Positions 1,765-59,438 are shown, counted from the stretch's first letter. The stretch is DNA of 64,000 nucleotides from Moniliella sp. 'wahieum' (GCA_003971905.1 RSEE01000061.1:248001-312000), one strand, 5' to 3'. Made by a program: numbers and translations. The notes: a model not told the origin generated them from the letters alone.

Positions 1765-4151
1765 GGCGGAGGGGTGGTGGGGTGGGACAGCGGTTGGTCG
1801 AGCGAATCTAGACGGAGGCAGCGAAGACGAGGGATGGTTAATCAGTGGGAGGTGATCGAGGTATCGATCCTCGACCCCGTCCTATTCTATTCTAGTCAAT
1901 ATCAATAGTAGCGCTTCAATGAAGTCTCAGATCGCAGGGCCTCAGGGCTTCAGGGTTCGGCGCTTCAGAAGCGCGCCACATGTTGCACTGGTGCACTAGG
2001 TACGACTGCTCCACCGCGCCAGTCCCAGGGAACATCATGCATCATGCATCATGCGCCAGACGCTGGCTGCAGTGCGCGGCACCCACGCTGCCCTGCCCCC
2101 ACCCACAGCATCGGGCCTGGGACAGCATGCCCCGTGGCGCCGTGCGGGCGCACGCAAGCCACTGCCCCCCCGCCGGTGCTGGACCCTGGTCGGGGGAAGG
2201 AACGACTGCGGCGCCACATTCGGCAAGGCAAGGCGCATGCCGCAGCAGGAGCAGATACCGGCACGCTGCCCGCAAAGCCGGCGCGTGTCGCGTCGTGTAG
2301 CGCGCGCCCAGGGCCAAACTCACCGGACTCACCGGAGTTTGGTGTCCACGGCCAAATGGTTGATTGCGGCCAGCTCAGACAGTGCGACAACTCACACACC
2401 CACATAATGGGCGTCGGCCGGTGGACGCAGGGCGCTGGAGTCTCATGCATTTTTGGGAGAAGACCACGCCGGGTCGCCAGCTATCCATATGGTTGTGGTT
2501 GCAGGCAGCTGGACGCAGAGTCGCCGACCCCTCAGGGCCTCGCCTCGAGCCTCAGGGTGATCAATGGAAGAGAGAAAAGACCGAAATCCCCCATAGATAC
2601 ATTTTTGGTTTGCCCCAACGCACATAGTGTCAAACTGTCGCCGTGCCAGGAGCCCTTAGGCCTTATGGCCTGTTCGCGGCATTTTGCCTGATTCCTATCA
2701 GTACTATCAATTGTGGGAGATCCTGTGTCTACCTCTCAGATCTCAGATGTGCCCCTTTCCTTCAGAATATACATATAGATCCAGGCTGCCCAGAGATAAA
2801 GTACTCAATTCTGCTAGAGTGCGACTTGGAGCACTCGCGATCCTATGGATCAGCTGCAAAGCAGCCTTCAGACAAGGCGTGAAAGCAAAGTGGTGATCCA
2901 CAAGTCTTCAAGCAAAGTCTGAAGGGAAGGAGGAAGGAGAGAGAGAAGGGAGCGAACTCTTCCGGACGGCTAAGCGAGCGGCACCGATCCATTGAGGGCC
3001 GTGCAAGGGAACCCTAGCACTACCCCTCTAACAAATTCATCTGCATCCCTTTTCTCTCCATCTCCCTGACACCTGACCTTTTTTGCCTAATACGATCTTC
3101 CACTCCGTCGTCTCCCCATTGCATGCATATAGATTTTCTTCTTGATTTCTTGATACCTTTCCCTCAGAATGAACGCCACGTACGATGCCGTGGGGCGTGG
3201 CTGTGAACGATCTTTATTTTCGCCCCTTCTATTTGATCAGGACTGTGAAGAGTGGCAATCACTTACGACTTGGGTGCACAACATTTGAACGAGGATGGGG
3301 AGAGTTACCTGGCAATGTTATCCCGGGGTTCTTCTGGAGGGCTGCTTGGGACAGAGCAAATGGTTCGTGGGTTAGTGGCAAGGGTTACTTGTCGCCCACC
3401 CGTGCTCCCACAGGTGCAGCTGGCAGGCATCTCATCAGTGCATCTGCCCCTCGGGCTCACCCCCCCCCACCGCCACCTTCTTGCTACCAGCGTCGGATCA
3501 GCCCGACGCATGGTGCAACGGCAATGTCTGTACTGCTAGTGCGGTTTGCTGAACACGGCGTCTGTCGCTCTGCCCCGTCGCAGTGTGCCGGTCGAGTAGT
3601 GCGAGGTGCCTCTTGACTGGGTTGATGCTCCGCCGCTAACAGCATGGGTGGTGAACCCAGTGCTACCACAATGCCGCCAGCTACTCATCATACGTCTCCT
3701 CTGCCGCGCCTTGTGCCATCCGTCTCCGTTCCTGTGCTGACATTTTGGCAGCGCTATCTCGTGGGCCATCCGTCGTCCCCCTCTTCCCTGAAGTCAACGA
3801 GTGGAAAGCAACTGAACGAGAGGCAAGTGTTCGGGCAAAGGAAACGAGAAGTTGCTTCTCTGTCGGATTGTCGAGCGATACGAGTGGGAGCACCAAGTAC
3901 CAAGCCAAGCAAAAGATGCACTGGTAGAGGGAAGGACACAGGATCGGCTGAGAGCACAGTGAGGAGACTTACCTGATTACCAGCTACGAGCACCGTGACA
4001 CCGCGCGTTTTTTTGGCCACAGAGCCTGCCACAGCCAATGCGCAGCTCTTCAATATCATTTTTTGACCCTACCGGTGCGATGGGCCAGAAGCTCAGCATT
4101 GCTACTCCAGGTGCCCATCCCCTCGAGTCTCCCACCAGCGGGTTTTTTTTT

Positions 4152-4690
4152 TGTTGACTAGGTTGCCGCTGGATCTGGTCCCAACCCATCCACAATAAGT
4201 ACGTTGGGTGTGCATGCCTGATTCTCCGCTCGCCCGAGCCACAGCCCGCAAGGCGGCTGAGCACTTCGGTTGAGTGGCTCGTGTGTTTTGGCCACCTGGG
4301 CCTTCAGTCCCTCCTCAGGCGTAGGAGTTGCCTTGTTTTTCTCGCTTCTGTTTTCCTTGTTCCACAGCCTAGCCCCTGGAGGCGACTGGCCGCTTGACGT
4401 TTCTCTCTAGGCGTTGCCGGCTGGCTTCATCCACCACCGTCACCAGTGCGGTTGCATCACCCTCGAGGACCATCAGGACTCCAGGTCTCAACAAACTTCT
4501 CCCACCAAGGCTTCAAGCCTCAAGACATAGGTTGGCCTCGAGATCGGACTTACCATTGACGTTGCCCTTTGAAATTGGGTACAATGGTTTCGGTTGGAGA
4601 AGGGCGGGTACATATCTGGGCCCTTCGCCGGCGGCGTACCGTGCTTGTACTCTGTTGTGCTTGAGAGCCGAGTCCAGTGTTGACTCGTGA
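4152..4690 (-). mobile_element. Decayed LTR-retrotransposon 3' end (probably Ty1/copia): LTR-like segment 4152-4493, purine-rich tract and RNase H-like remnant
   Basis: 4152-4493 is bounded by TGTTGA...TCAACA. On the minus strand it is preceded by GGTGGGAGAAGTT (PPT-like). 4274-4493 aligns by eye with the TSD-flanked solo LTR at 34471-34698. The adjacent minus frame reads KHNRVQARYAAGEGPRYVP, resembling the copia RNase H C-terminus. Confidence 0.6.
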
Positions 4691-5280
4691 GGCCTGAGGA
4701 AACTAGAGTTGGTCACCAGCAGGCATAGTGCTAGTGAACTTGATTCCTGAGCGCCTGCGCGCCTGACTTCATGCTGGAGCGGTTGGGCGGCGAGACGCTG
4801 GGTAGTGTTGGTGGCAGTGCCGTTGAAACGAGGCCATTTGATGTATGTCGTAGTAGTGGTGGGTGCACTGGGGCGGAGGCTGCTGGCGCGGCGTATGCTA
4901 GCGTAAGGACGCGCGGGCAGGCACACCGGAGAGAGACGCGGGGTTTGGGCGCTTGGGTTGGACGTTGGTGCCTGCACGCCGCCGATCTTCTTGCGCGTCA
5001 GGAGGTCTGTGCACACACTGCCCCTGCGCCTAGGCTGCAATGCAGCGCTAGAGGGGCAGTGCGCTGTCCTGTGCCGCCCCGAGCCGCAAGATGGCGCCCA
5101 GCACCAGCAAGGGGGCAGTGTTGCGGACATGGTTCTCTCTAGCCTCTGATTCTGAGGATCTCAACTCTCAACGTTCAGTTGAACGTTGAACCTACGAAGG
5201 CAGTCGTCAACCCTTGCCACGTTCTCCGTTGCTTACGCCCACCACCCCTTCCGCCCCTGCCCCTTCCCCCCACATCCGCC

Positions 5281-11318: not shown

Positions 11319-11620
11319 CCCTCGCCCTCGCCCTCGCCCTCGCCCTCGCCCTCGCCCTCGCCCTCGCCCTCGCCCTCCCCTCGCCCTCGCCCTCGCCCTC
11401 GCCCTCCCTCGCCCTCGCCCTCGCCCTCGCCCTCGCCCTCGCCCTCTCGCCCTCGCCCTCGCCCTCCCTCGCCCTCGCCTCGCCCTCGCCCTCGCCCTCG
11501 CCCTCTCCCTCCCCTCGCCTCGCCCCTCTCCCCTCGCCCTCGCCCTCGCCCCGCCCTCCCTCGCCCTCGCCCTCGCCCTCGCCCTCGCCCTCGCCCTCGC
11601 CCTCGCCCTCGCCCTCGCCC
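11319..11620. repeat. Hexanucleotide microsatellite (CCCTCG)n, roughly 50 units with a few interruptions
   Basis: Directly visible tandem ccctcg units, ending about 45 bp before the ATG at 11665. Confidence 0.99.
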
Positions 11621-11664
11621 CCACCCCCCCCACCCCCACCCTTGCCCCCGCCTTTCCGCGTGCC

Positions 11665-13387
11665 ATGGCCCAGCCGACGACTGGCGACGCTCACCCTTCT
11701 GCGTGGACGCCCGCGTCGGCCCACCCGGCGGCCGCTGCTCCCCCGTCGGCCACAGCCCCCGCGTCCATCTCCATGCCGCCCTCGGTTCCATCTGCTGCTG
11801 CATACACCCATCCCCACCCCTACCCGCCCCACCCTGCCCTCGCCGCACCCCCGCATGCCCTTGATCCCATGTACTGGCCCTCTCAGCCCGCTGGCGTGGC
11901 GTCTCCCCTCGGCATGCCCGGCCCCCCAGTGCCCGCCCCGGCTGCGTCCGCCCCTGCTGGACTGCCGCATGGCCCTCCTGCCACCGGCACCCGCGACGAC
12001 ATCATTGCCAACGCCATCGTAGTCAAGAACATTCCTTTTGCCGTTGCCCGCGAACAGATTCTTCAGCTCATGGACGAGCTTCATCTCCCGCGCCCCTACG
12101 CCTTCAACTACCACTATGACGATCGCCACCAGTTCCGTGGCTTGGCCTTTGGCAACTTCCGTGCCCCGGAAGAGGCGGAAGCAGTTGTCGCTGCCCTTCA
12201 CGGATTTGAGATCAGTGGCCGCCGCCTCAAGGTCGAGTTCAAGCGTGTTCTTCACCCGGACGAGAAGATGCGAATCGAAACCAACAAAGCTATTCGACGC
12301 ATGCAATCGCTCCAGGTTGACCGTGATCGCCAGCAACCCCGTGCGCCACCGCAACCGCCTCGTGCTGCTGCCTTGCGTACTCCTTCGCCCCATCACCCTC
12401 ATTTGACCCCGTACCAATCGTCGTCTACCAACTCCCTTCGCGCCGCGGCCGCTGCTGGCGCTGCCGAGGCTGCCCACCGCTCCCCTGATCAGATGCGCGC
12501 CTCGCCATCTCCTCGGCCACAATCGGGTATGCTTTCCATCTTGTCTCTTTTTGTCGTGCTATTCTAACACCTTTCTCTCTAGAAGCTTCGAGCACAAACT
12601 CGGCCGATGTCAAGCCGCTAGACTTTAACGAGCCGGGCACTCTGGAGCTCTACAGCCGCCTCCTCCTCTTCAAAGATGACCGTGCCCGAACGGAGATGGC
12701 GTTTCCGCCCGGTATGAGCGCAACGGATCGGGCGACAGTGCACCAGCTATCTGACCGTTTGGGCCTGCATCACTTGACCATACGGGAACCTGAACCGTAC
12801 GTGATTGTCTCCCATCGTCCGCTGCGGGGTCCAACCTCGACGCCTGCGTCGAGGCCCATTCACTCGTCGATGCACGAGCCACATCGAGTCGTTTCCGGTC
12901 CCATCAGTGGAGGCCCCACCCATGCCGCTTATCGTCTTCGTCCCCAAGCTTCCCTTGGCCGTATTTCAGGTACGCCTACCACTCACGGAGACCCTTCGTC
13001 GGTCTTTTGGCACCCGGATACTCTTCCCCCAGTGCCCGCTTTCTTCGTACCAAGAAGTCAGCTCCCGCAATGACATATGGAGGACGCGATTATGCCTACG
13101 ACGACCCCTACGCACCCGCCGTCCCGTCCCTTCCGTCGGGCTTTGGATACCCTTCTAAGGGCGGATTCGATCCCTCTCAAGGTTCCGGTAGTCTGGCTCA
13201 TTTGACTGCGGGGATGGGCAACATGTCCGTTGCGGATCCGGCTCAAGGGATGCCCTTGGCGGGTGGACGAGGATACGGCCCCCAGTCCGACTTGATTCAC
13301 CCTGATCTTCTCTCTGGTCTTGTCAATTCACAACAGCATCATGCTGGTGCGATTGGGAGCGCTCTCCCCGCCCCGCGGTCAGCCTAG
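11665..13387 (+). CDS. PIN4/Cip2-like RNA-binding protein (RRM + R3H); intron about 12527-12582; may extend to about 13920
   Basis: AIVVKNIPF, PYAFNYH...FRGLAFGNF, GRRLKVEFKRVL (Pin4-type RRM); LDFNEPGTLELYSRLLLFKDD and FPPGMSATDRATVHQLSDRLGLHH (R3H). Confidence 0.88.
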
Positions 13388-16999: not shown

Positions 17000-17479
17000 G
17001 CTGGCGTTGGTGTTGGTGCGGGCTGCCGAGGCGGCTGGGTGGCGGGGGAAGCGGGGTAGATGCGGCCACGTGGAAGCCAGTGCCACGTCATCCACATTTT
17101 TGGCGGTGGGCGGCGGCGGAAGGTGGGAGAAGCGGTGACATGTGACACGTGAAGCCTCGAGCGGACTCGGATGCGAAATTTGAAACGTGAAAGTGTCAAG
17201 TCCAATGCTGGAAGCGTCCAGAACCTTGCAATTTGAAACGAGGCGATGCGAGCCCAGCGCTGCTACCCCAGTCGGCCTACGCAGTCCCACGTGACCCCGC
17301 GACCGCGTGACCGCCACTCGCCTGTCCACGTGACAGGCACACTATCCCCCCTTGCTCGTCAGCGGTGGTGGCGGCCGCCACAAAAATTGGCTAGCGCAGG
17401 CAGATGGAGGCCTCCTGCTCAGCCCGCAGGGGCCATCGTTTCTTCCCACCACAACCCTCCTCTCATTTGCCCTTTGCCC

Positions 17480-22287: not shown

Positions 22288-23273
22288 GTATTATTGTCAT
22301 TCGCATGCGCCACAATACCTGGCATCCTTACTACTTCCCTCGCGCGGTAGCATTCCATATTCAATAGTCAACTTCAACACGTTCAGCTGGCGGGAGTAGT
22401 GACTAGTGACGAGGTGGTGATGGCAGGCTCTCAGATCGGACGCCAGGCACTAAGGGCGTAACGCGTACGGACTCAACGCAAGCCTGAGGACTGGATATGC
22501 CAAGTGGGCCGATCTCGAGCAGGCTGTCGGCCGCTGTCACGCGCACCCCGATGTGGCTGTACCGGGGTTTACCCCAGTGGGACGGGCTACTTGGGCTACT
22601 TTTGCACTCGGAAGATGAAGCTATGCGTACGTACACCCCCCGCCCCGCACTGGGGCAGGAGCGGGAAGAAGGCATGGACGCAGAGCGAATAGGTTGCTCG
22701 CGGGTGCGCAGACTGAATCCACGTCGAGATCGTCAAGTTAATGCGTCCAGCGCGCGGTTAGCGGTTAGCATGCTCATCGATGATCGATGAGCGGTGCCTC
22801 ATTAATCATTAATCACGTTTGGCGCGCCCATTCGCGTTGGGGTCGCGTTGGGGCCCAGGCGCCTTTCACACGCACCGGCGCTGAGTGCCCAGGCTGAGCC
22901 TCAGCCTCAGCTGCTGCCCCCAGTGCGGCGTGGTGCGGCGCGCGTGCTGCGTTATTCCCACCGCGACAGCGTGGCTGCTGCTGCCGCCGGGGTGGACGTT
23001 GGACGCAGACAGGCCACGCAGGTGAAAACGCGGCGGCGGGAGGATGGGCGAGGCGTAAGCCAAGCGGAGCCTGCGGTGGGATGTGAGAGTGGGTTATCCG
23101 CCCCCACGCATCACCCACCCCGTCCCTCACCGCTCGCCCATCCTCCCGCCGCCGCTGAAAGCGTCCGCCCGGCCCAGCACAAACCCACACTCGTCCCCGA
23201 AGCCCAATAAAAGGCACCCCCCCCCGCATCACTCCCAGCCTCTGTCTCCGCCACCACCCCCACCCCCACCCCC

Positions 23274-25227: not shown

Positions 25228-26384
25228 GCCCCTCGCCCGCGCGGCTCTCCTCCTCTCTTCCCATTTTATGTCCTGTGTATGTCGGTGTCACTACCATGCT
25301 TTCTTTTCCCCTTGTGTATCTCTGCGTGGCGGGGCCCTGCCATATAACGCATGGAACGTTGGAGCCATTCGTCGCCAGAGGGGGCCGAGGGGAGATGGGA
25401 GATCACATCGATCACATGAGAGGCTCACATCATAGGAGAGCGGGTGGGAGAGGTTGCTTTGTACTTGGGGTACGAAGGGCAGAGATGGCGAGGGTTAGGG
25501 ACTAGTTGGCCTGCTCAGCGGTGAGGCGCACCAGGGATGCGCACCCGAATAAGCGAGACCAACCCCGCGATCGAGCGGGGATAGGAAAGGGGGGAGCAGG
25601 CTGCGTGTAATATGAACGGTGACCGGTGACCGGTGATCGATGTTCTCGCTGATTGATCGATGAGGTCGATGAGGACCCATTCCATCGATTACAGTCTGAC
25701 AGCGGGGTACATAGTCTCTAGCAATGGACAGACACCCAGCCCTCCACAGGGTTAAACTTAACGTTAAGGAAGCGTGCAGCAGCATGGACTTGATGTATGG
25801 CGATTACGTTGATTAATGACTAGAATGACTGAGGCTGCAGCGTCCGGTGGAGTTGTCGGAGAATCCAGGCTGAGCCCAGCGGCTGAGCTGTGGTCTGTAA
25901 ACGTGTAAACGTTAAACGTGGAAACGTGGACCAGGAAGCGAAGGCTGGGGCGCGAGTATCAGCAGGCTGGGCCGAATAATGGGCTGACTCAGCTGCTGAG
26001 ACTGTCAGCGGCGTGAAGCTGAGGCGGCGCGGAGTAGAGCCGCGCAAGCGGCCGCTTTCAGCACGCTCGGGATTGGCACAGGCGCAGTCCCCGGTCCGGC
26101 TCGGGTAGCAAAAGCGCGGCCGCCGTGGAGGAGGTGACGAGGGCGGAGATGCACAGGAGGCAGATTACTACCGCAGTGGCTCTTCTTTTCCAGAGCAAAC
26201 CAAAGCCGCCAGGCAAACGCAGGGGCTAGGGTTGTGCTCGTCATGCACCATGCTCATGACTCATGCGTCAGGCGGTGCCGGCGTGGCGCGGGGGCAGTGG
26301 TGAAAATGCCATCGACCATCGATCCCCGGGCGTCTGAGGCATGACGTCAGACACAGCCTCCGTGCGGCGCAGTGCCCACCCGTC

Positions 26385-29300
26385 ACCGCCCACCGGTCAC
26401 CGGTCCCCCCCACATCCGACGGGCGAAGAAAACGACGGACGGGAAGCGAAGAAAGAAATAGTCCGACGAGCGGACAAAAGAAGGCTGCCTCCGTGCCGCC
26501 CGCGGCTGCAGCTCTTTTTAACGGCCACAGCCGCAGCCCACACCCGCCGCTTCTGCCTTCCACCTCGCCACCTCTCGCGCCCCCCCAATGGCTGCCATGA
26601 TGATGCTCCGCAGGCGAGCCGCCGCCCAGGCCCATGCCCTTGCTGCCCCCACCCCGGCGCTTGCCCTCGCTGCCGCCCGCCCCTGTCCTCGTCCGCGTCT
26701 CCCATCCGCGCTCGCCCTCCCCCCCACCTCGGTTCGCCGCGCCTTCTCGGCGCCCACGCCCAAAACCCATGCCGTGGCTGCTGCTGCCACCACCAAGCAG
26801 CACATCAAGTGTGTCTGTGCTCCGGCGCATCTGCCCTGTTCTGTCTGCACTGGTACTAACCTTTGTGTTCCTGTGTCTGTTGCAGTGAGTACCCCCGTCC
26901 CACGCCCGCCCCTTCGTTTCAAGCCCCCGAGCCTGCGCCCGAACCATCACGAGCGGAGGAGGAGGAGCTGGATCATTCCTTTGTGGGCATGACTGGCGGT
27001 CAGATTTTCCACGAGATGATGCGGCGGCACAATGTCAAGCACGTGTTTGGCTACCCTGGTGGCGCTGCGCTGCCCGTCTTTAGTGCGATCTACAAGTCCC
27101 CCTACTTTGACTTTGTTCTGCCGCGTCGGGAAGACGGGGCGGGTCATATGGCGGAAGGGTACGCTCGTGTGTCGGGCAAGCCGGGTGTGGTGCTGGTCAC
27201 GTCGGGCCCGGGTGCGACGAATGTGGTGACGCCGATGCAGGACGCTCTGTCCGACGGGCTTCCGCTCGTTGTCTTTTGTGGGCAGGTGGCCACGAGTGCG
27301 ATTGGGTCGGATGCGTTCCAAGAAGCCGACATGGTCGGCATTTCGCGCTCGTGCACAAAGTGGAACGTGATGGTCAAGAGTGTTGAGGAGCTGCCGCGTC
27401 GGATTAACGAAGCGTTCAAGATTGCCACGTCGGGCCGACCGGGTCCGGTGCTGGTGGACTTGCCCAAAGACATTACTGCTGGTGTGCTCCAACACCCGAT
27501 TCCCTTCTCCAGCACCCGCCCCAACGAGGCGGCCATTCCCTCGCGTGCGACCGCCGCCCGACGTGCGATTCCGCCCCATTCAGCTTCGACCCCTGCCCTG
27601 AGCGCGCAGATGCAAGAGGCCGCTCGCCTGATCAACCAGGCCAAGCGGCCTGTCATTTATGCTGGCGCTGGCATTCTGTCCTCGCCCGAGGGCCCCAAGT
27701 TGCTTGCTCAGCTTGCTGAGACAGCCAGCATCCCGGTCACCACCACCCTCCAGGGCTTGGGCTCGTTCCCAGAGACGAACGAACTGTCGCTGCACATGCT
27801 TGGCATGCACGGTTCTGCCTATGCCAACTTGGCGATGCAAGAGGCGGATGTGATCATTGCCCTCGGCGCACGGTTTGACGACCGTGTGACGGGACGGGTG
27901 GACGAGTTTGCCCCCGTGGCGCGCAAGGCCGCCGTCGAAGGTCGCGGCGGCATTATTCACTTTGAGATTATGCCCAAGAACATCAACAAGGTGGTCCAAG
28001 CGACGTGTGCGATTGAGGGCGACGTGGTCAAGAACCTGGGGGAGATGTTGGGGGAGATTAAGGCGGTTCCCAAGTCGGAGCGCGAGCAGTGGCTCGGTGC
28101 GATTCAGTCGTGGAAGAAGCGGTATCCGTTCACCTATACTCCCTCCGACCCCACCAAGGGAGAGATGTTGAAGCCGCAAGAGGTCATCACCGCGCTGGAT
28201 GCGGCGGTGGCCAAAGCTGGGCGTAAGGCCGACACGATTATTGCCACGGGCGTCGGACAGCACCAGATGTGGGCGTGCCAGTTTTACCGATGGACCAATC
28301 CGCACACGTGGGTCTCCTCTGGCGGTCTGGGTACCATGGGCTTTGGTGTGCCCTCAGCGATTGGGGCCAAAGTGGCGTCGCCCGAAAAGACGGTGGTGGA
28401 CATTGATGGCGATGCCTCCTTTTCCATGACGGCCATGGAGCTGGCCACGCGGCGGAATTTGGAATTGGGGTCAAGGTGCTCGTGTTGAACAATGAGTTCC
28501 AAGGCATGGTGTTGCAATGGCAAGACTTGTTCTACAATGCCGAGTACGCCCATACCAAGATGACCAATCCCAACTTTGTCAAGTTGGCCGAGGCGATGGG
28601 CATCAAGGCGCTGCGGGTGGACAATGCGGCGGACCTGCCGGCCAAGATGGACGAGTTCCTCAACCCCCAATGACAAGCCCATCTTTATGGAGGCGCGTGT
28701 GACGCGCACCGAACACGTCTTCCCCATGGTTGCCGCAGGCAAGGCGCTGAACGAGTTTATCGTACACGAGTCGCTGCGCGAAAAGAGCTCGTGAGGCCCT
28801 ACCGCCGCCTGCCCTCGCCTTTGATGTCCAGCGGAGGTTTCTCCTTTTGATCCGGGGCTACTGCTTGCCTCCGCTACATCGCACTGGCTTCAAATGTGCA
28901 TGTGTGCATGTCCTGCTGGCTTGCATGCACCTATGTATACCGCATCTTCTCCCTCTCTTCTTGCTCGACCATGCCCATCTTCTACTCTTGGATCAAACAT
29001 ACTATGTCTCCTTCCTTCTCCTGCCGTTCGTCCTTCCCCGCCCTTTCTCACAGGATGGGCGCCGATGACGGCAGCATGTGCCCGGCTGGTGTGCGACTGG
29101 ATGTGTGCCATTGCTACTGTACAAAAATGCCATGAACATCGATCTGATTGCAGTACTGAGTACTGAGTACAAGCGACAGCGTGAGGATCGATGGATCGAT
29201 GACCTGTGCCGGACGCACTAGCGCACTGGCCCTCCGTCTTGGCCGTCCCGGCACAGCGCCCCTCTTCCCTGGCTGCTGGGCCAAGAGGGGCGCCCTGCGC

Positions 29301-34470: not shown

Positions 34471-34698
34471 TGTGGAGCCAGGTGGCTCGTGCTTTGGCCA
34501 ATGTCCCTTCAGTTCCTCCTCAGACCTAGGAGTTCCGTTGTTTTCTCTCTCCTGTTTTTCCTTGTTCCGCAGCTTAGCCCCTGGTGGCGACTCGCTGCTT
34601 GATGTTCCTCAGTAGGCGTTGCTGGTTGGCTTAGACCACCACCACCACTAGTGCGATTGCATCACCCTCGAGGACCATCTGGACTCCAGGTCTCATCA
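34471..34698. mobile_element. 228-bp solo LTR inserted in the gypsy integrase, with 5-bp TSD GTCCA
   Basis: TG...CA ends; GTCCA at 34466-34470 and 34699-34703; removing it restores integrase PWSSISMDHF. A related copy lies at about 4274-4493. Confidence 0.9.
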
Positions 34699-37729: not shown

Positions 37730-39240
37730 CTAATGCCAAGTCCAAGGGCTTTCTCCCCTAAATTCCGGGGTCGAGAGCTCCGTCTCGGGGCTCGCCCCAT
37801 GACATTTTGAAGTGCCAACAATAAGTGGAATGCGCAACACACAGCTGCTCTGCAAAGAGCAGTACTTCTATACCGGAGTTGCTATGGGGCTGATACCATC
37901 TTCTTTTCATAAGCTGTGGTGGTTGCTGATCAGTTGTGAAGAGTATGAGGCCCCAGACTGGGGCCAGAGGAGGCGTTGCCGCTTCAAAGGTATGCCACTT
38001 CGTCTTTTGGAGCAGGGAGTGCGGATACCATCGAGAGCACTCTGTAACATTTCAGAACGCGACGCGAGAGGGCACTGCCCTGTACATTCCGCTCGAGCAA
38101 GGCGGAAAGTAACACTGCCTCAGTGCCAGAGGAATGTGACAGTGTCGTGCTGCTTCCCCTCGCTTGGCATTCAGGCCGCGCTTGAATGCCCCTAGGAAAC
38201 GCGTGGGTATAAAAAGCCCGCCCCCCAGGTTCGCTTCCTTCCCCCTCCCACCACCATCCTTCCAGCAAGCAACCAGCCTTCCTCTGGATACGTGCCCTCC
38301 CTATCCCCACCTGTGGTCTCGCACATCCCTCGAGCCCAGGACTGAGTACTAACACCCTCACCCTGTCTATCTGCCCTTCTGCCAGGTTGGGAGACGCGTC
38401 GCAGGTCAAGATCATCCTCAATGTCGCCGCGAGCATCTCCAAGCCCATGGCCAGCGTCGTCTCGGATCCAAACGCACTCCAATTGGGAATCAAGAGCTTC
38501 TACCTCGTCCAGGGCCACGCGTGTTACACAACAACCTCCCACAAGCATCGCCGACGCGTCGAACGTCTTCAAGAGCGTGACCAACACCTTGGCGACCATC
38601 CTTAACATCATGGCCGGTACCATCCCCATTCCACGCACCCCTGTTCTTCAGCTAACTTGTCTTCCCTCTCTGTGCACTTGCAGCTCCAAAGGCCATGCAC
38701 ACTGGTACGTTCTGGCATCCTGTTGCTGTTGTCCATCGTGTACTAACTCTCTTTCATCGCTTGTGCCCCAGAAGTCTTTCGACGTTTCCACATGGCGTGC
38801 CCAAGTTTCGCTTACTCGTTTTTCGTTCGGCTGGGGGCAACCACTAACTCTTGCAGCGCTCCCCCTCGCCCTTCCCGTCGTCGTCGAGCGCGTCAAGTTG
38901 CGCTGGATTTACCCGCGGTGTTCTGGCGCAAACGCGAGCGCCTGCTCGATTCAAAAATGCATTAATTGAACCCCTAATCTTGTTTGGATCCTTCATTGGC
39001 TGTGATTTGATAGTGTGTGATTTGGCTGTGATTTGATAGTGATGCTAGCAATCGGTGATCCACTGGTCGATGTTCCAATCATCGGGGATGATCGATGATC
39101 GATGAAGTGATCGATGATCAACGATGCGGTGATAGATAACCCATGTGTGACTTGTCCCGATCTTGGACCCTGGTCCCGATCACATCACAAAGCTGAGTAT
39201 CGTCACCCGTCATGCGGTGAGCGAATTTCCCAAGAGCGCC

Positions 39241-42200: not shown

Positions 42201-42588
42201 GGAGTGCGGCAGGGCGCTGAGGCGGCGTTAGAAGGGCAGTCCATGTCATTCATGTGACCACTACACTAAAGTACGGAGGAGTATGGGTAGCTGTGACATG
42301 CGACTAGACTGGGGACCGGTGACTAGTAATTAATGATTGTCACGAGTGAGCTAGTGAGTACTCAGGTACTGAGTACAAGCGACAGCGTGAGGATCGATGG
42401 ATCGGTGACCTGTGCCGGACGCACTAGCGCACTGGCCCTCGTCTTGGCCGTCCCGGCACAGCGCCCCTCTTCCCTGGCTGCTGGACCAAGAGGGGCCCTG
42501 CGCCTGGTGCCACACACGCCCTGTGCTGGCAGTGGGGGTGCGATAGGCGCAGACGGGTGCAGTGGCATGGAGTCAACAGTCCCGGGAC
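39241..42588 (+). repeat. Direct segmental duplication, copy B (ILV2 plus flanks)
   Basis: Near-identical to 26385-29385. Confidence 0.97.
39485..41681 (+). CDS. ILV2: Acetolactate synthase catalytic subunit, copy B (more diverged, possibly degenerating); intron 39705-39774
   Basis: Same motifs as copy A but with YLGGAV, ISRPC, PVTTLQ (one codon deleted), GMALQW and other changes. Confidence 0.9.
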
Positions 42589-42823
42589 ACCAGGCAGGCG
42601 GCCAGCCACGGGCGGAAGATCGATACGCAATCTGAGATCTGAGATCGGCAAACGGGTGTTCAATCATTGATCAACGTTCAACGTTCAACGTAGGCACCAA
42701 TTTAGCTCCAGCCACGCCAAGGATCGACATGGGTTCTAGCCTGAATATAAGAAGCAGGTGTCCGAGGCCAGTTGTTATCAATCAGCCCCTCCTTTCCTCC
42801 ACCCCCCCACGTCGCCCTACGCC

Positions 42824-44990
<2,167 letters not shown>

Positions 44991-46673: not shown

Positions 46674-46826
46674 GGCTACGGTAGCGAGGGGTAGTGGTGG
46701 CGCGGGCCACTTGGGGCGGCGGGCTGCTGGCCAGATGTCTGTCTAACCGAAGGTGGGTTCCCGCAGGTGCCCGCTTGGCTATCGAGGCGCTAATAAGGGG
46801 CTGGCGCACTGATGAGCCTACCTCGA

Positions 46827-46857
46827 TGATGAATGATCGATGACCGGTGACCGGTGA
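46827..46857. promoter_or_regulatory. 7-bp-periodic TGA-(4-bp palindrome) array between the divergent YRB1 fragment and PRP8 (representative of a dispersed family; function inferred)
   Basis: TGA TGAA TGA TCGA TGA CCGG TGA CCGG TGA, about 270 bp upstream of the PRP8 ATG. Confidence 0.5.
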
Positions 46858-47124
46858 CCCTGCATTTCATTTTCAGCGCAGTCTTGCGCCAGTGCCTCCA
46901 ATTCCGCCCGAAAGTTGGGATGCATTACCTAATTCCGCTTCTCCCTCCCGCCGCGTACAGCCCGCAGGCATCCAAACAAGCAGCAACGCCTGGCGGCGAC
47001 CAGCAAGAATCTGGCCACCGCCTCCTGCGTTCTGCCCACCGTCTGCGAGTGCGTCCGTGGTTGCGTCGGCGTCTGCGTCTGCATCTGTGCCTTCCCCCCT
47101 TCGGCGCTTCTCACAACTGGCACC

Positions 47125-54422
<7,298 letters not shown>

Positions 54423-54967
54423 GGGGACGTGCCTGACTGTTGGCATTGTCCACCCCGACCGGAATTGTCTACTATGATCTGAACTGGCACTGCCCGCGTG
54501 TGCCCCACTAATAGCAACAATTGAATTGGTTCGTCATGTGCTTTTAGGCTTGTCGATCGTACCCCGTAGAGGAGATGCGTCATGACGGATGGCCCTGAGG
54601 GCTCCGATCGCACTGATGGGCTTCAACCTCAACAGCTTAACCCATCAGGCAACGATCAGATGGCTTGCCAGGAGAACTACATAGGGAAGAGCAGGACTAA
54701 ACGTTTACACCTGGACACTTGAATTTAACTTGGAGGACAACTGTCGTGCCCGCTGGGCGGCCGCAGATCCATCATCTCCGCGAACACTCGCCAGGTGCGG
54801 GGGGGCGCAAGCTACCAGTCTCCGCTGTAGATGTACATGTCGCAATTGAAATTGCAAGCCGACCTTCTTTCTTCGCCTTCTCATCTCGTAAACTGGTTTT
54901 TTTTCCCCGGCCCGCTTCCTAGCCACCATCCCCACCGCTCCTTGATTCAACCCTTGCCTCCCTTATA

Positions 54968-55853
54968 ATGGCGCCGCACCTCGATGGTCCCCGTCGCGAG
55001 AGCGAACGCTCGCATTGCTGGCTCGGGTGTCAGCGGCATTGCCGAGCTCTTCGTCTTCCACCCTGTGGACACGATTGCCAAGCGTCTGATGAGCAACAAG
55101 GATGCGTCCAAGTCGCTTACCCAGGTCATTTTCAAGGAAAAGGCCACCGCACCCATCGGCACCAAGGCGCTCTCTCTCTTCCCTGGGCTCGGGTATGCGG
55201 CTGGGTACAAGGTTCTGCAGCGTGTGTACAAGTTTGGTGGTCAGCCTTTTATCAACGACTACCTCCGCACCCACTATGGCCAAGCCTTTACCAACACCTT
55301 TGGTGAGCGCAACGGCAAGTCGATGATGCAGGCCACGGCCGGATCTCTCACCGGTATCGGTGAGGTGGTTCTCCTCCCGCTCGACGTGCTTAAGATCAAG
55401 CGCCAGACCAACCCTGAGGCTTTCCGTTCGCGTGGCTTCTTGCGCATCGTTAAGGACGAAGGCTTTGCCCTGTACCGCGGATGGGGCTGGACCATGGCCC
55501 GCAACGCCCCGGCTCGTTCGCCCTCTTTGGTGGCTCTGCATTCACCAAGGAGTACCTCTTTGGTCTGAGCGACTACAGCTCGGCCACCTGGAGCCAAAAC
55601 TTTGCCGCTCGATTGGTGGTGCCGTGGCGTCCATTACTGTCTCTGCTCCATTGGACGTGGTCAAGACCCGCATCCAGAACGCCAACTTTGAGTCCAACGT
55701 TGGTGGCTTTACGATCATCAAGGACATGGTCAAGAACGAGGGAGTGGGCGCTTTCTTCAAGGGTCTCACCCCAAGATTCTCGTCGTTGGACCGAAGCTGG
55801 TCTTCAGCTTCACTCTTGCCCAGTCGCTCCCCCTCTTTGGCAAGCACATCTAA
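54968..55853 (+). CDS. GGC1: Mitochondrial GTP/GDP carrier
   Basis: FHPVDTIAKRLMSN, SLFPGLGYAAGYKVLQRVYKFGGQP, GIGEVVLLPLDVLKIKRQTNPE, LYRGWGWTMARNAP, PLDVVKTRIQN. Confidence 0.95.
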
Positions 55854-58800
55854 TGGCCCTGTACCACCTAAAAGTCCCTGTCTCCCCTACGGGTGCACAT
55901 GTCTTGCTCTAGGAGGCACATGCTATCATTCCCATATGCTTCACTGCTCTCAGCAACGACACCAACTTGTGCTCCTAGCCGGACGATCTAGTCAGGGGAG
56001 ATGCCGTAGTTCAACCCGTAGCTGCCCCGCAGGCTGCATTCCATTCAGCAGTCGCAGCATTGCAGTACAGCATCGACTGTCTCGCCCCGTCTGGAATCAG
56101 CCGCAGCACTATACTGTTAGCGCCATGATGCATGCATGAGATAGATCCTGCGCCCTTTTAATGTTACGGGAGAAACGAGATCTGAGAATAGACTGATGGT
56201 GGCCAAAAGGATCAAGCGCAGCCGATTGGCTTTCAAAGGCATTGCGCGCCGAGCTCGCAGTTGGGTTGCGGTAGACACAGGGTTTGGCCAAAAACTGCGC
56301 GCAATGGGCATGCCTGGAAGCATCATCTATCGTACCCTATAGCGTTGGGCCAAAGGGGTCTTGGCCGGGCGGGGAGTACATCGGCAACACGGATAAGTTG
56401 CCGGCTAACTAGGGATTCTCTTTCAACACTAGTCCGACGGGAGAGACGGGGGGTGTTTCGATGATCGATGATCAATGATTAATGAGAGGCCTCCGAAATG
56501 AGGGCCTCGTGCCCTATGTCCGGGAAAGTATCCGCAATGCCCCGTAACGCGTAACGCATAAGGAGTAACTAGTTCCTTCGACCCTTCCTACAGAAGACTC
56601 TAGAGACGGCTAACATGTAACAACGCGCACACATGCCCCGCATCTGCTCTGTGTGATGTATATGGTCCGACCTCCAACCCTCCCATGTGGTTCTGCCCCT
56701 GTCGTCAGTCCTCAGGGCCTCAGGCACCTCTCCACGCTCACGTGGAATGGAACCATCAGTGCATCATCCATCATCGCCTCCCTTTCTCACGCTGTCTACA
56801 TTTATTAGCTTCAAGCTTCTTAAGCCTCAAGCTTCAAGCTTCAAGTTGAAGGTCTGGGAGATCCAGGGTCAAAGAGCCGATCCTGCACCAAGCTTCGTAA
56901 GCCTCCGAGGGCGACACGACACGTTACACATGCCCCTTATGGTGTCGGCTCCGGCAGGGAGGGGAGTCCTACCGCCGTAGGGTAGGTGGAGCCAGGGCCC
57001 AGGGAGGCAGACGGACGAGTGCAACCAGGTGTAGCGCGTAGCCTCAACGTGTTCAGATCTCAGAGGAGACTAGATGAGCCCTACCCTGCCCCTGTAAAAG
57101 ATCAACTAGAGACCGAGAGTCCGAGAGACCGAGAGACCGAGAGAAGGGAGATGGTGTTGGCCCAGCCTTTTAGTCCAGGCCCAGCGCCCCGCTGTTTTCT
57201 GTACCACGCAGCCCAGTGGCACGCGCAGCGCCAAGACGCCATACATCCCGGGATTTCTCCCAAGCTCCAGCCTCCTGTGACCTGTGACCTTCAAGGGCGA
57301 CAGGCAACACGCTTCCCCTATAGGTTCTGCCCTCCCATGTCGGTTTCAGCTACGCCGATTGCAGATGGTAAAATGCCAACTTGCCAAAAGAGGAGTCCGA
57401 TAGGGGGAGGCCAGGAAGGAAGAGCCGTATGGATAGGAAGCAACAGGAGACAAAGTGGCCTGAGGCAGAACCACGCAAGGTTCAGACAGCTGTATGACAT
57501 TACACCAGCCCAGGCCATGCCAAGGAAGAGACGGTGCATGAGGTGCATGCGGCATGAGGCATGTGGTGGCGATCTACTGGTGGAGAACATAGCTCCCTCG
57601 GTATCCCGGGTATGTGTGCTGATGATGGGCGGTGTATGCAGCGCACTCTCTCTCAGTCTCATCGACGCAGGAAGAAGGCTGGTCCAAGGGTAGCAACAAG
57701 TGGGAACGAGGGTGTGGCAGAGCGAGAGAATGGCCCTGTCGGGTGCGTGGCGCTCGTGTACGATGCACCTCCCCCGGTCCCCACGGCGCGTGGTGTGGGC
57801 AGCAATGGAAGGCGATGGAACATGGAGGACCCAGCGGCCCTCCCATCCGGCATGCTGCGTCCAGGCTGCCTGCAGGTGCACGTGCACGGCAGCCAGTGCC
57901 TGACGCATGCAGCATGATGCAGGGTGCACGTGATGCGCGTTGCTTCCATCAAGCTCATCAAGCTTTAAGCTTCAAGCAACGACGCATAAGCTCGACGAGG
58001 TGGGTTTGCATATGCGTGAAAGCGAATGATCAACGAGGACGTGAAACGTTAATGATGTTCATGATGAATGACGCGTGACGCAGCCGCGATGATCGATGAC
58101 CTCGATGGCCAGCCTGAGGCGCGCCTGACTGACGAGACAGGCTGAATGTGTTAGACGTCCAAGTGCTGTGCGCTCGCTCAGGCTCAACACCTGTTCAGCT
58201 GCCAGTCACTCAGCCGCTCAGCCTGAGCACCGAGCACGTCTGAGTACCTGAGGACTGGTCCTGAGGCCGAAGCCCGAGTTACCGAGTTACTGAGTACTGA
58301 TGGTGTGCTGATCGCTGATCGATTGGCTGCGGATGCTCGATGCATGGGCATCAGAGATCTGACTACTTGGCTATGTAGGGCTGAGGCAATGCAAGTATGT
58401 ATACGGCGTGGATGCGTGAAAGTGGCTATGGTATAGGGAGGCTTGAAGCTTGAAGCTTGACGAGGTGGATGAGTTGGATGAGATGGATGCGACATGTGAG
58501 ATGCGCATGCGTACGGTTTCCAGGCAGGGCGACCGGTGGAGAGTAGGGTACCAGTGTTGGATGGGCCGGCTGGGCAGTGCCGGCTGCCAAGCGGACTTTT
58601 GCAGCTACTCTCTGACTTGGCAGTTCATCTGCAACAATCCTCCCGGTGTGAAAGAGCCTGATTCACTGATTAACTGATTGACCTGGCTATCGAGATGAAT
58701 GTGGCGCGGCAGATGTGGATGGATGGCGACACAGCAGGGGCGGGGAAAAGAAAGGTGGAAGATCGGCGGGGAAATGAGGCTAATAGAAAAACTTGCGCCC

Positions 58801-59438
58801 GAGCCCGAGGGCGCCGAGAGAAGCGGTGCCGCCGATTTCTGCCCCGCCGGCGCAGTGAATATGGAGCGCACGTTGATACGTTCGTTGATGCATGATGTGC
58901 TGGGGGCGTTGATATAATGATCCGTACTCAGTGGATACGTTGATAGTCGCGTCGTCACGCGTCAGGTGTCAGGGCCTCAGGGCCTGCTCGAATGATTACT
59001 ACCTGACGATTAACTATGAACTGGCTCACACTCGCCCTGTACGGCGGGCGGGGTGGCTTGCGGGGGCTTGCGGCCGCACGCTGCGCCTACAACCATCGTC
59101 ATCGATCATCGATCATCTGCCCTCGCACCCCCCGCGTACCCGGCCCTGCCCGACACCCGAGCCAGACAGGTCACGGTCAGCCCGCCAGGCAAGCAACGCC
59201 CACGATTAATGATGAGCGCATGATGAGCAGCCATCATGCATCATGCATCAGCGGTCATCTCGTTTGAAAGACCCGAGCCCAGACGAGACGAGCTCACCAT
59301 ATAACCCCCACACCACTCCCTGTGTGCCCACTCCTTGTCTTCTCCCACCCGCCACCACCACCACACCACCACCACCGCTGCCGGCCACCGCTCCCGGATA
59401 CCCCTCTCAGCTCCACCCTCGTGTCTGCCATCGCCATC

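Follow-up and report, generated by a model that had tools for sequence, protein, structure and literature searches.

Seven-nucleotide-phased palindromic arrays in the intergenic spacers of a Moniliella genome, tentatively read as scars of a stereotyped insertion

The window analysed here is one stretch of 64 kb (64,000 nucleotides) from the assembly of Moniliella sp. 'wahieum' (GCA_003971905.1, RSEE01000061.1:248001-312000), a host placed in the smut subphylum by the similarity of its ILV2 sequences. It carries a G-alpha gene with Pfam matches on the minus-strand ORFs 704-1881, a divergent DnaJ / Bax-inhibitor spacer, two ILV2 copies (A and B), GFA1, PRP8 and a gypsy retrotransposon region of 9.5 kb. 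The coding map was obtained with a crude codon-usage predictor made for this analysis. The assembly is an indel-rich one built from long reads, and the arrays described below are known from this one window of it. About one base is missing per 100-150 nt, as judged from the exon pieces that are comparable with a same-species contig. The same-species contigs of run X1 contain 10 inserted bases or base pairs relative to the window, and the X1 comparison pieces of 227-335 nt display 0-4 substitutions, yet two gaps each. PRP8 and similar long genes are split into frame-shifted ORFs at the places of the missing bases.

A preliminary description of the window had listed dispersed TGA or TCA repeats separated by 4-bp palindromes, and the strings that it gave are present at 19 of 19 coordinates. 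This period-7 palindromic pattern is real and very strong in the window, and we found no earlier description of it in the literature. Shuffled sequence provided the background expectation for the period-7 and palindrome counts. Period-7 rows represent 28 of the 112 rows returned by Tandem Repeats Finder, and exact period-7 tandem runs of at least two copies number 32, against a mean of 3.62 and a maximum of 9 in 50 dinucleotide shuffles. In 20 of these 32 runs the unit is a 6-bp palindrome plus one base, and all 20 palindromes are of the form A....T; the 12 non-palindromic runs are enriched over shuffles no more than runs of periods 6, 8 and 9. Pairs of palindromic A-N4-T hexamers occur 18 times at distance 7 and five times at distance 14 (0.4 and 0.5 in 100 shuffles), and the same shuffles reveal no such spike for the other palindromes (C..G 2 vs 1.6, G..C 2 vs 1.6, T..A 0 vs 0.4).

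The enrichment of palindromic spacers that the preliminary description had proposed to measure was found with 200 shuffles: TGA-pal4-TGA occurs 25 times vs 1.05 and TCA-pal4-TCA 17 times vs 1.08, and non-palindromic tetramers stay near expectation (TGA..TGA 23 vs 16.1, TCA..TCA 15 vs 15.6). Thirteen of the 16 palindromic tetramers are in use. The rule that the palindromes are joined by G or C holds for 18 of the 20 palindromic runs; it is not a restriction, as A is the joiner in the other two and any base is possible. With the same 200 shuffles, TAA-pal4-TAA (3 vs 0.12) and TTA-pal4-TTA (1 vs 0.14) are enriched as well; all four middle bases of T-N-A are represented, three of them similarly enriched and TTA, with one case, more weakly. 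The repeat unit is T-N-A plus a 4-bp palindrome, a sharper rule than the one first given.

The tracts are given below as palindrome + joiner, with the strand where one is assigned. Canonical 12-mers are located at 2654..2665 (AGGCCT+T, plus), 4688..4699 (AGGCCT+G, minus), 17136..17147 (ACATGT+G, minus, in the DnaJ / Bax-inhibitor spacer), 22398..22409 (ACTAGT+G, plus), 25906..25917 (AACGTT+A, minus, with an A joiner), 39108..39119 (ATCGAT+G, minus), 56611..56622 (ACATGT+A, minus), 57053..57064 (AGATCT+C, minus), 58069..58080 (ACGCGT+G, minus), 58088..58099 (ATCGAT+G, plus), 58289..58300 (AGTACT+G, plus), 58886..58897 (ATGCAT+G, minus) and 58953..58964 (ACGCGT+C, plus). Canonical 19-mers are found at 25618..25636 (ACCGGT+G, between a decayed unit and an ATCGAT unit), 39087..39105 (ATCGAT+G), 42671..42689 (AACGTT+C, about 60 nt upstream of GFA1, with exact period 7 up to 42691, 21 nt), 56827..56845 (AAGCTT+C, the exact reverse complement of 58442-58460), 58442..58460 (AAGCTT+G), 59099..59117 (ATCGAT+C) and 59232..59250 (ATGCAT+C, with the next predicted exon about 190 nt downstream). 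At 46834..46859, 118 nt upstream of PRP8, an ATCGAT unit precedes a canonical 19-mer ACCGGT+G. The 19-nt array at 29152..29170 (AGTACT+G) is the sole 19-mer out of phase. Arrays with three TNA lie at 2033..2053 (ATGCAT+C, about 150-250 nt upstream of the minus-strand G-alpha gene) and 22799..22815 (ATTAAT+C).

Arrays of two units are situated at 2734..2747 (AGATCT+C), 5178..5191 (AACGTT+G, adjoining an inverted TCA-ACGT-TCA at 5168 and the sole tract in predicted coding sequence), 26391..26405 (ACCGGT+C, upstream of ILV2 copy A), 42631..42644 (AGATCT+G, about 100 nt upstream of GFA1) and 56543..56556 (ACGCGT+A, with an A joiner). The array at 22774..22790 (plus) contains ATCGAT with the joiners C then G, G within an odd palindrome of 21 nt (arm 10), 42315..42334 (plus) is a mixed period-7 array of the three perfect palindromes ACCGGT, ACTAGT and ATTAAT, which differ by transitions only, and 56460..56485 passes from ATCGAT units through TCAA and TTAA units to a canonical 12-mer ATTAAT+G, a stepwise CpG decay. 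Finally, extra letters separate the left copy from the inverted pair in the period-9 variant 25659..25672 (plus, two letters) and in the period-8 variant 58667..58679 (minus, one letter).

The basic object is the 12-mer xyTNA + revcomp(xy) + xyTNA, which has 57 matches at 31 loci against 0.31-0.36 in shuffles. The spacer is the reverse complement of xy in 57 cases (0.33 expected) and non-complementary in 24 (4.58 expected), so that palindromic letters templated by the flank are present at the junction. The target letters are retained as a duplication, in two or three copies of xyTNA that share one N: TGA..TGA and TCA..TCA with a palindromic N4 total 42, and the mixed TGA..TCA only 2, which indicates that N is copied directly. 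Tract lengths are quantised at 12 or 19 nt in a single fixed phase. Eight of the nine exact 12-nt tracts fall in one strand-symmetric phase class (expected 0.16), and five of the six 19-nt tracts fall in the class of the canonical 12-nt tracts; tracts of 13 and 20 nt are this class plus one chance letter, and the three 14-nt tracts are each in a different phase. Lengths cluster at 12/13 and 19/20, and no tract in the window is as long as 26 nt. Taking one 7-nt period out of the 12-mer, wherever it is cut, leaves the bare xyTNA, with no palindrome and no direct repeat; the palindrome is thus made by the event and did not pre-exist.

These properties bear on the microsatellite-like appearance noted in the preliminary description, since the arbitrary ends expected of microsatellites are contradicted by the fixed phase and the quantised length. 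Ordinary slippage, or plain 7-bp target-site duplication of the kind made by Galileo, hAT7 or Kyakuja, would account for tandem period-7 copies of two or three units in spacers. Galileo makes 7-bp duplications with a palindromic consensus around the centre base (PMC2775673), and 7-bp duplications are also ascribed to the basidiomycete hAT7 and Kyakuja in PMC12730594. Nevertheless, such processes predict at least 14 nt in arbitrary phase, and the dominant tracts have 12 and 19 nt in one phase. A pentamer with no direct repeat offers slippage no starting point, perfect palindromy of arbitrary letters is more than a target consensus can require, and the 12 non-palindromic period-7 runs show no special excess. 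We consider this explanation hardly credible, the canonical 12-mer being incompatible with it. A slippage-born micro- or minisatellite was rejected as well: it implies arbitrary phase, smooth lengths, a pre-existing repeat and an unconstrained unit, none of which the tracts show.

The sequence requirement is restricted to T-N-A. With T as third letter there are 66 matches vs 1.52, the other letters giving 2 vs 1.66 (A), 5 vs 2.81 (C) and 5 vs 3.2 (G), and enrichment among the 12-mers is confined to the T..A class (57 vs 0.33). The letters xy are arbitrary and unselected: their choice fits the background frequencies of xyTNA (35 arrays, 2725 seeds, chi-square 16.7, 15 df), without any preferred core, and the left flanks of the arrays have no consensus. 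The outcome of the event is stereotyped, as a single product class is enriched. Pure 5-nt duplications (6 vs 5.03) stay at or near background, as do truncated products and those with an inverted part of another length (at most 5 vs 1.24), and the inverted letters always lie on the side away from TNA. In a minority of products the inverted pair is set off by extra letters from the left copy (one letter 7 vs 0.21, two letters 5 vs 0.37) or from the right copy (5, 1 and 1 vs about 0.3), although four of the five one-letter extras on the right lie in G/C runs where reading or assembly is ambiguous. The extra letters thus sit at the junctions where they would be expected if two ends had been joined. 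Derivatives with one mismatch occur 2-13 times at every position vs about 1, and look like neutral decay.

Folded as DNA, the 12-mers reach 0 to -0.8 kcal/mol and the 19- to 22-mers fold weakly (-1.7 to -4.2). A structured hairpin element was rejected on the absence of a stable fold in the 12-mers and the weak ones in the 19-mers. The window has no excess of T-S-A-centred palindromes with non-palindromic arms (4 with an arm of at least 6 vs 2.2 expected).

The arrays are intergenic, as had been suggested, and scarce in coding sequence. Of the 35 tracts of at least 12 nt, 34 lie in the 28.2 kb of other non-coding DNA, outside the retrotransposon, and one in the 26.3 kb of predicted coding sequence (Fisher 1e-8); the 9.5-kb gypsy region has 0 tracts in spite of 774 seeds (Fisher 8e-5), both tests being computed relative to TNA seeds. 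About 1.3% of the eligible pentamers in the spacers of the window carry the signature, and promoter-containing spacers house all but one or two loci. Predicted coding sequence and retrotransposon together hold 2740 of the 4978 TNA seeds and 102 of the 246 A-N4-T hexamers, and only 1 of the 35 tracts. This distribution weighs against the reading that the arrays are artefacts of long-read base calling or consensus, with errors surviving only where both strands share context, that is in palindromes. The window is indeed error-rich, with the inserted bases and gaps seen against X1 and long genes of the PRP8 type frame-shifted at the places of error, but an artefact should follow its trigger wherever the seeds are. 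It would also not be expected to yield graded decay, mixed units that differ by transitions or differences between paralogues in their arrays. Known long-read errors are indels of one or two bases, and not templated insertions of 7 nt. We consider an artefact very improbable.

The placement in promoter-containing spacers is an argument for selected cis-regulatory or chromatin elements, in which a factor would read the phased T-N-A or the palindromes, or TGA/TAA on the sense strand would act as three-frame stops in leaders. No array goes beyond three TNA, and TGA repeated three times every 7 nt would place a stop in each of the three frames; several of the palindromes resemble known factor sites. 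Furthermore, in a tally of our own from the tract list (the paralogue at 42366 included) and the exon map, 24 of 35 tracts have a purine joiner when read in the sense of the nearest gene downstream, 10 do not, and 1 is ambiguous; these tracts are not independent. The 'wrong' strand is seen, however, in the three arrays closest to the gene at 59441. The variable letters occur at background frequency, and a factor cannot require 'any palindrome'; the lack of folding in 12-mers and its weakness in 19-mers, as well as mismatched derivatives as common as perfect copies, also argue against selection. As paralogues, only the arrays of the two ILV2 copies are comparable, and of these one has changed unit type and one has changed length. 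The site of copy B at 39239-39258, paralogous to 26391..26405, presents CACCGCC units instead of ACCGGT+C, a switch of unit type in the sole comparable pair of ILV2-copy arrays, and the paralogue of 29152..29170 at 42366-42376 differs and adjoins a 320-bp indel. In 80 other fungal contigs (711,622 bp), 16 canonical 12-mers were counted vs 7.35 in shuffles; the array signal is limited to the lineage and absent from these 712 kb of sampled fungi. Selected elements are therefore an improbable explanation. The preliminary description had offered two readings, and the one of a promoter or chromatin code is not supported, there being no preferred core, no foldable structure in the 12-mers and only a weak one in the 19-mers. 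Its other reading, the footprint of a repeat-generating mechanism, is favoured by the palindrome made by the event, the background xy letters, the stereotyped outcome and the neutral-like decay by mismatches.

The explanation that we prefer, tentatively and with somewhat less than even confidence, is that the arrays are neutral mutational scars of a stereotyped break-and-rejoin insertion of 7 nt, perhaps transposon-derived, and not a code. We infer a bare pentamer xyTNA (x, y and N free) as the ancestor, which would gain seven letters to become xyTNA + revcomp(xy) + xyTNA. Five of the inserted letters, including N, would be direct copies, and two would come from the opposite strand and abut xy without a spacer; the inverted part may also be read as three letters if the A opposite T is counted. 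The junction of the inverted pair with xy would create the A-N4-T palindrome, and the 19-mer would arise if the restored xyTNA underwent the event once more or a single step of slippage. Because a direct duplication is combined with a spacer-less inverted copy, we propose a staggered break of which one end would pass through a hairpin-type, P-nucleotide-like intermediate before rejoining, a minority of junctions gaining one or two extra letters. The agent would be a nuclease or a cut-and-paste transposase with a T-N-A preference, working in the open promoter DNA of this lineage, either through visits of a transposon that inserts and excises or as a transposase-derived enzyme. Against such scars, the 64-kb window has yielded no transposon whose ends or target duplications match, and the search for inverted repeats in it returned array pairs and unrelated palindromes only.

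Tracts with the joiner on the same strand tend to follow one another (11 runs in 35, permutation P 0.016). Such blocks are not foreseen by a purely random process and count against the scar model, and they would fit an asymmetry linked to replication or transcription. An unlikely alternative is an error of replication that needs no dedicated nuclease: the nascent strand would pause after T-N-A, switch template for two letters and resume five letters back. T-N-A pairs with a same-sense T-N-A save for the middle base, which offers a foothold for the switch, and the 12-mer contains 5-nt direct repeats 7 nt apart, so that 12 could become 19 by slippage without a special enzyme. Template-switch and quasi-palindrome mutations yield templated insertions that are inverted plus direct, as in the arrays; these and insertions of the polymerase-theta type consist of direct and reverse-complement copies from a few bases away. 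Such insertions nevertheless vary in length and source, and the arrays show one fixed product with T-N-A required. C-N-G, G-N-C and A-N-T are equally self-complementary, yet unused. The return jump would occur without microhomology, the left flanks lacking a consensus, and a fold-back of one strand needs a loop and cannot give a spacer-less inverted copy. One or two extra letters at one defined junction resemble end joining, and a replication error should also strike the retrotransposon, whose seeds carry no tract.

Several known systems resemble the proposed scars in part. P nucleotides of V(D)J coding joints are comparable palindromic letters derived from the flank. Footprints of Ac/Ds consist of palindromic copies of flanking DNA explained by hairpins (PMC4561436). 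Ac/Ds shares with the arrays a direct target duplication, spacer-less letters of the opposite strand and occasional extras at the junction (PMC4561436), as do other hAT elements. In contrast to hAT and V(D)J products, the inverted letters of the arrays are one-sided and always two (or three), and the product is almost invariant. In contrast to hAT, the arrays duplicate 5 (or 4) nt instead of 8, require T-N-A and keep the centre base uncomplemented, and no element was seen in the 64-kb window. Among the traits of hairpin-type footprints, the arrays show the duplication and the flank-templated palindrome and lack the equal treatment of both flanks and the variable trimming or P length. If a transposase acted symmetrically, hairpin nucleotides should be found at either flank, together with a range of trimmed products, and by our own derivation a complemented centre base and A-N-T centres should follow from hairpins of the hAT type, yet neither is seen; both points count against the scar model, as does the maximum of three TNA (no 26-mers), for which it has no explanation.

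PIF/Harbinger-type transposases target T-N-A with a free middle base, produce 3-bp duplications and excise precisely, and TTA, TAA, TCA and TGA are all usable by PIF/Harbinger-Tourist (mPing/Pong) in yeast assays; for the mPing/Pong type, both copies stayed in about 14% of cases, only with mismatched duplications (PMC4561436). The arrays share the T-N-A target with its free middle base. They differ in duplicating five letters and adding two inverted ones, whereas PIF/Harbinger duplicates 3 bp, excises precisely and leaves no inverted pair. The Tc1/mariner footprint is composed of the target duplication, letters of the element ends and the duplication again, according to PMC4561436. It is similarly a stereotyped scar with a short palindrome between two target copies, but this palindrome comes from the element ends and is family-specific and symmetric, while that of the arrays matches a one-sided flank at background letter frequencies. 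Galileo (P superfamily) and the hAT7 and Kyakuja of Basidiomycota share the 7-bp periodicity; their retained duplication is at least 14 nt with a consensus only, with which the 12-nt canonical tract is incompatible. Promoter microsatellites and unstable tandem repeats are also short arrays in promoter spacers, and the 12-to-19 step of the arrays may be slippage, but they lack the unit rule, fixed phase, quantised length and birth without a repeat.

If they are real, the arrays constitute a clean and countable mutational signature with single-base anatomy, and such signatures usually trace to one enzyme, which would give a handle on a nuclease, a transposase or a repair pathway in a little-studied branch of the smut fungi. 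Possibly, though with less assurance than the scars themselves, the lineage carries a new break-and-rejoin activity that recognises T-N-A in open promoter DNA, either an enzyme derived from a transposase or a pathway of a repair polymerase; we suggest that it may be still active because perfect copies coexist with decayed ones. For annotation, the arrays should not be taken for a regulatory code or for unrelated microsatellites, and the phase and length of short repeats can tell insertion scars from slippage. Empty and filled alleles should be easily scored in populations. If the scar model is true, the scars are a countable record of past breaks, and the process keeps minting 6-bp palindromes in promoters, which are potential dimer-binding sites and would be raw material for regulatory evolution.

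The strings of TGA or TCA trinucleotides separated by palindromic tetramers, on which a preliminary description of this DNA was based, are present at every position where they had been described. Tandem Repeats Finder assigns period 7 to 28 of its 112 rows, and at this period 32 exact tandem runs with two or more copies were counted, where 50 dinucleotide-preserving shuffles gave a mean of 3.62 and a maximum of 9. An excess over the shuffles was also found at periods 6, 8 and 9 (55 vs 13.5, 11 vs 0.92 and 7 vs 0.36, respectively), which indicates a general background of short duplications. In 20 of the 32 period-7 runs, the unit is a 6-bp palindrome plus one joiner base; all 20 palindromes have the form A....T, and 18 of these runs have G or C as joiner and two have A. 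The remaining 12 runs are what the general duplication background would give. Pairs of A-N4-T palindromic hexamers occur 18 times at 7 nt (0.4 expected) and five times at 14 nt (0.5 expected), and the C..G, G..C and T..A palindromic hexamers of the window give no such signal. The proposed preference for palindromic tetramers (pal4) was borne out against shuffles, with 25 vs 1.05 occurrences of TGA-pal4-TGA and 17 vs 1.08 of TCA-pal4-TCA; the corresponding values for non-palindromic spacers are 23 vs 16.1 and 15 vs 15.6. The restriction of the joiner to G or C proved too narrow, since TAA (3 vs 0.12) and TTA (1 vs 0.14) act around pal4 like TGA and TCA. The joiner is therefore free, and G and C dominate because the DNA is G+C-rich (57.5% in the window). 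Mixed TGA..TCA pairs flank a palindrome in just two cases, a rarity indicating that the joiner is copied and not complemented.

Every maximal exact period-7 tract with a rule-obeying unit was measured, and the positions in the unit where it starts and ends were recorded. The lengths are quantised: nine tracts of 12 nt, six of 13 nt, six of 19 nt, two of 20 nt, and one each of 21 and 22 nt. No 26-nt tract was found among them, and the arrays end at three TNA. The phase is fixed, as one strand-symmetric class holds eight of the nine 12-nt tracts (0.16 expected) and five of the six 19-nt tracts; the 13- and 20-nt tracts represent the same class with one more letter. The canonical 12-mer is composed of xyTNA, the reverse complement of xy and a second xyTNA (x, y and N being free), and the 19-mer contains one further reverse complement and xyTNA. 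This 12-mer was detected 57 times (both strands counted) at 31 loci, versus 0.31-0.36 in shuffles. Concerning the third letter of the architecture, T is found 66 times vs 1.52, and A, C and G 2 vs 1.66, 5 vs 2.81 and 5 vs 3.2 times; among the 12-mers, T..A is the sole outstanding class if the remaining phases of these arrays are disregarded. Simple doubling of the five letters xyTNA shows no enrichment (6 vs 5.03), inverted parts of another length and trimmed left copies stay at or near background, and among other geometries of the form D(k)+revcomp(D[:m])+D(k) the period-7 cells alone stand out beyond ordinary repeats. The product is stereotyped. Removal of one period from the 12-mer leaves xyTNA, which contains neither palindrome nor repeat, so that the A-N4-T palindrome would be made at the junction by the event itself and would not be a pre-existing site that was duplicated. 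Plain slippage, or a retained 7-bp target duplication, is contradicted by the phase and length of the tracts and is hardly credible as their origin.

A minority of sites contain one or two extra letters, which are observed between the left copy and the inverted pair (one letter, 7 vs 0.21; two letters, 5 vs 0.37), and between the inverted pair and the right copy in 5, 1 and 1 cases vs about 0.3, four of the five one-letter extras on this side falling within runs of G/C, whose reading or assembly is ambiguous. Judged by their placing, the inverted pair acts like an extension of the right-hand copy, the junction lying to the left of the pair. The direction of templating deduced from near-miss copies is uninformative (right 16 vs left 13).

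The window has a eukaryotic gene content. Pfam matches include a G-alpha (minus strand), a transketolase-like E1 subunit, an MPN/JAB protein, DnaJ, a Bax inhibitor, a GCN1-like HEAT protein, a flavin monooxygenase, two acetolactate synthase (ILV2) copies, GFA1, PRP8, a mitochondrial carrier and a GNAT protein. Coding DNA was delimited with our own crude codon-usage predictor trained on 14 Pfam-supported ORFs, which is not a gene annotation. On this map the arrays do lie between genes, as had been noticed: 34 of the 35 tracts of at least 12 nt are located in 28.2 kb of non-coding DNA and one in the 26.3 kb predicted to be coding (Fisher 1e-8, per TNA pentamers). None is found in the 9.5 kb between the ILV2 copies (Fisher 8e-5, per TNA pentamers), a stretch that holds a Ty3/gypsy chromovirus on the plus strand at about 30.4-36.9 kb, with gag, reverse transcriptase, RNase H, integrase and chromodomain. 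A 143-nt dispersed repeat (4351-4493 and 34556-34698, 86% identical), shared by the G-alpha/transketolase spacer and the integrase portion of the gypsy element, points to a remnant of an element of this retrotransposon family. A promoter is present in nearly all spacers that carry tracts, and 16 tracts are grouped in a single 3.4-kb spacer upstream of the gene at 59441.

X1, the single public sequencing run with words common to the window (5%), provided contigs of the same species that were compared over 42001-61000. These contigs are short and lie over exons; some are at least 99% identical to the window and skip a GT..AG interval, as if spliced, and one odd contig of low likeness links 58458 to 59099. 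None of the contig matches listed spans an array. Compared with near-identical X1 contigs, the window is short of one or two bases at ten sites where its ORFs shift frame (47584, 48375, 48444, 51620, 51795, 51917, 53475, 53492, 54240 and 55001). PRP8 is split into frame-shifted ORFs at sites of missing bases, and its apparent many exons are partly frame errors. The missing bases and the broken PRP8 frame show that the window derives from an indel-rich long-read assembly, which bears on the possibility that the arrays are assembly artefacts. This origin is very unlikely: over half of the trigger sequences lie in coding DNA or in the retrotransposon, yet both are nearly devoid of tracts.

The ILV2 copies A and B belong to a segmental duplication (26430-29400 vs 39310-42600, 95-99% identity). 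Upstream of the gene, copy A carries CACCGCC, CACCGGT, CACCGGT and copy B CACCGCC, CACCGCC, CACCGGT; downstream, a 19-nt AGTACT array in copy A is represented by a different 20-nt version in copy B. About 320 bp of copy B (42036-42365) are absent from copy A and end directly at the AGTACT array, the last 50 nt being packed with different A-N4-T palindromes at 7-nt spacing. These differences indicate that the arrays turn over on a time scale of a few per cent divergence. Copy B also contains additional frame breaks, which may reflect decay or assembly error, and a run of 27 C (39458-39484) vs about 8 in copy A, which may represent either a genuine expansion or a miscounted homopolymer.

The letters of the arrays look neutral. 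The xy dinucleotides of the 35 arrays follow those of 2725 unoccupied xyTNA pentamers in spacers (chi-square 16.7, 15 df over 16 dinucleotides), and about 1.3% of the eligible spacer pentamers are occupied. Copies with a single broken constraint exist for every position (2-13 each vs about 1), and mixed arrays differ by transitions (TCGA, TCAA, TTAA at 56462; ACCGGT, ACTAGT, ATTAAT at 42315), which looks like decay. The proposal of a promoter or chromatin code maintained by selection fits the placement of the arrays and their stop at three TNA, but clashes with background-like letters and decay, and we consider it improbable.

On the plus strand, purine and pyrimidine joiners are arranged in blocks (11 runs among 35 tracts, permutation P 0.016): purine at 56.1-56.6 kb, pyrimidine at 56.8-58.0 kb, purine at 58.07-58.9 kb and pyrimidine at 58.95-59.25 kb. 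These blocks only partly track the local TGA/TCA background. Arrays of the same type are only marginally clustered within 3 kb (19 pairs vs 13.1, permutation P 0.05). The 12-mers have no fold as single strands of DNA (0 to -0.8 kcal/mol), and in the 19- to 22-mers folding is limited to a 5-bp stem capped by a T-N-A loop (-1.7 to -4.2 kcal/mol). A template switch during replication, with the self-complementary T-N-A as anchor, would account for the step from 12 to 19 nt and perhaps for the strand blocks; it leaves unexplained why C-N-G and similar sequences are unused and why the retrotransposon is free of tracts, and appears unlikely. A general enrichment of T-S-A-centred hairpins was rejected, being absent outside the arrays: in the window, such palindromes with non-palindromic arms of at least 6 number 4 vs 2.2 expected.

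Three pairs of arrays of the same type form perfect inverted repeats of 12-19 bp (56827/58442, 58069/58953 and 58886/59232). They were rejected as terminal inverted repeats of small elements, as the pairs interleave instead of nesting and have no flanking duplications. Other repeats are present in the window. At 58840-58950 a 9-10-nt motif (ACGTTGATA-like) occurs three times within 100 nt, and the surrounding long spacer has many other 8-10-nt tandem duplications and a high general load of short duplications. About 51 copies of the hexamer CCCTCG (89% matches) lie at 11319-11620 inside long ORFs on both strands and adjoin other C-rich repeats (11618-11765); they represent either spacer satellite DNA or a coding repeat of low complexity. 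A 30-nt inverted repeat (23030-23155, 90% complementary, 66-nt loop) lies immediately upstream of the flavin monooxygenase gene and is devoid of TNA-type flanks.

The ILV2 translation shares 72-74% identity with named Ustilaginomycotina (Tilletiaria, Sympodiomycopsis, Jaminaea, Violaceomyces) and 87-88% with two other proteins in the same database search. These identities place the organism in the smut subphylum, with no close named relative in the database searched. The comparison set consisted of 80 metagenome contigs encoding ILV2 relatives (62-73% identity, hence not close relatives; 711,622 bp). It contains 16 canonical 12-mers vs 7.35 in shuffles, and 99 vs 95 for a control architecture with a non-complementary spacer. 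In these contigs, A-N4-T palindromes are not commoner at 7 nt (17) than elsewhere (72 over six other distances), and the 12-mer is about 40 times denser in the window. The pattern is not a general fungal feature, and a full-text literature search covering article texts retrieved no description of it.

To our knowledge, no protein can demand a palindrome of arbitrary letters, and such a palindrome betrays copying of the complementary strand. When a covalently closed hairpin is opened off-centre, it yields an inverted copy that directly adjoins its template with no spacer; fold-back priming needs a loop and cannot give such a copy. A direct five-letter copy, inverted letters and occasional extras at one defined junction make break and rejoining the simplest operation. 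A staggered break would span xyTNA, one end would gain two letters of its own complement (three, counting the A opposite T), and the ends would then be rejoined. The need for T-N-A would reflect the specificity of the agent behind the break.

Two element types were tried and rejected. In a mariner style, the 4-bp palindrome would consist of letters from the element ends, enclosed by 3-bp TNA duplications; symmetric tracts of 10 and 17 nt would then be expected, of which only 4 and 1 were found, together with family-specific letters, where xy follows background instead. With a hAT-type hairpin of odd tip, the centre base should be complemented, and H-N-revcomp(H) triplets should accompany non-palindromic hexamers, a case seen once, at 4514. 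PIF/Harbinger-type transposases target T-N-A whatever its middle base, and Ac/Ds leaves footprints with palindromic letters derived from the flank (PMC4561436). These two precedents would fit a transposase or an enzyme derived from one. Contrary to a textbook element, the arrays have one-sided inverted letters, a nearly invariant product, a duplication of 5 nt and not 3 or 8, and a centre base that is not complemented; an inverted-repeat search of the window detected no transposable element fitting the scars. The unusual repeat-generating mechanism envisaged in the preliminary description is retained as a stereotyped 7-nt insertion at xyTNA, the steps from operation to hairpin and from hairpin to transposase being those that we infer. 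Tentatively, we favour a reading of the arrays as scars left in open promoter DNA either by visiting transposons or by a nuclease of transposase origin.
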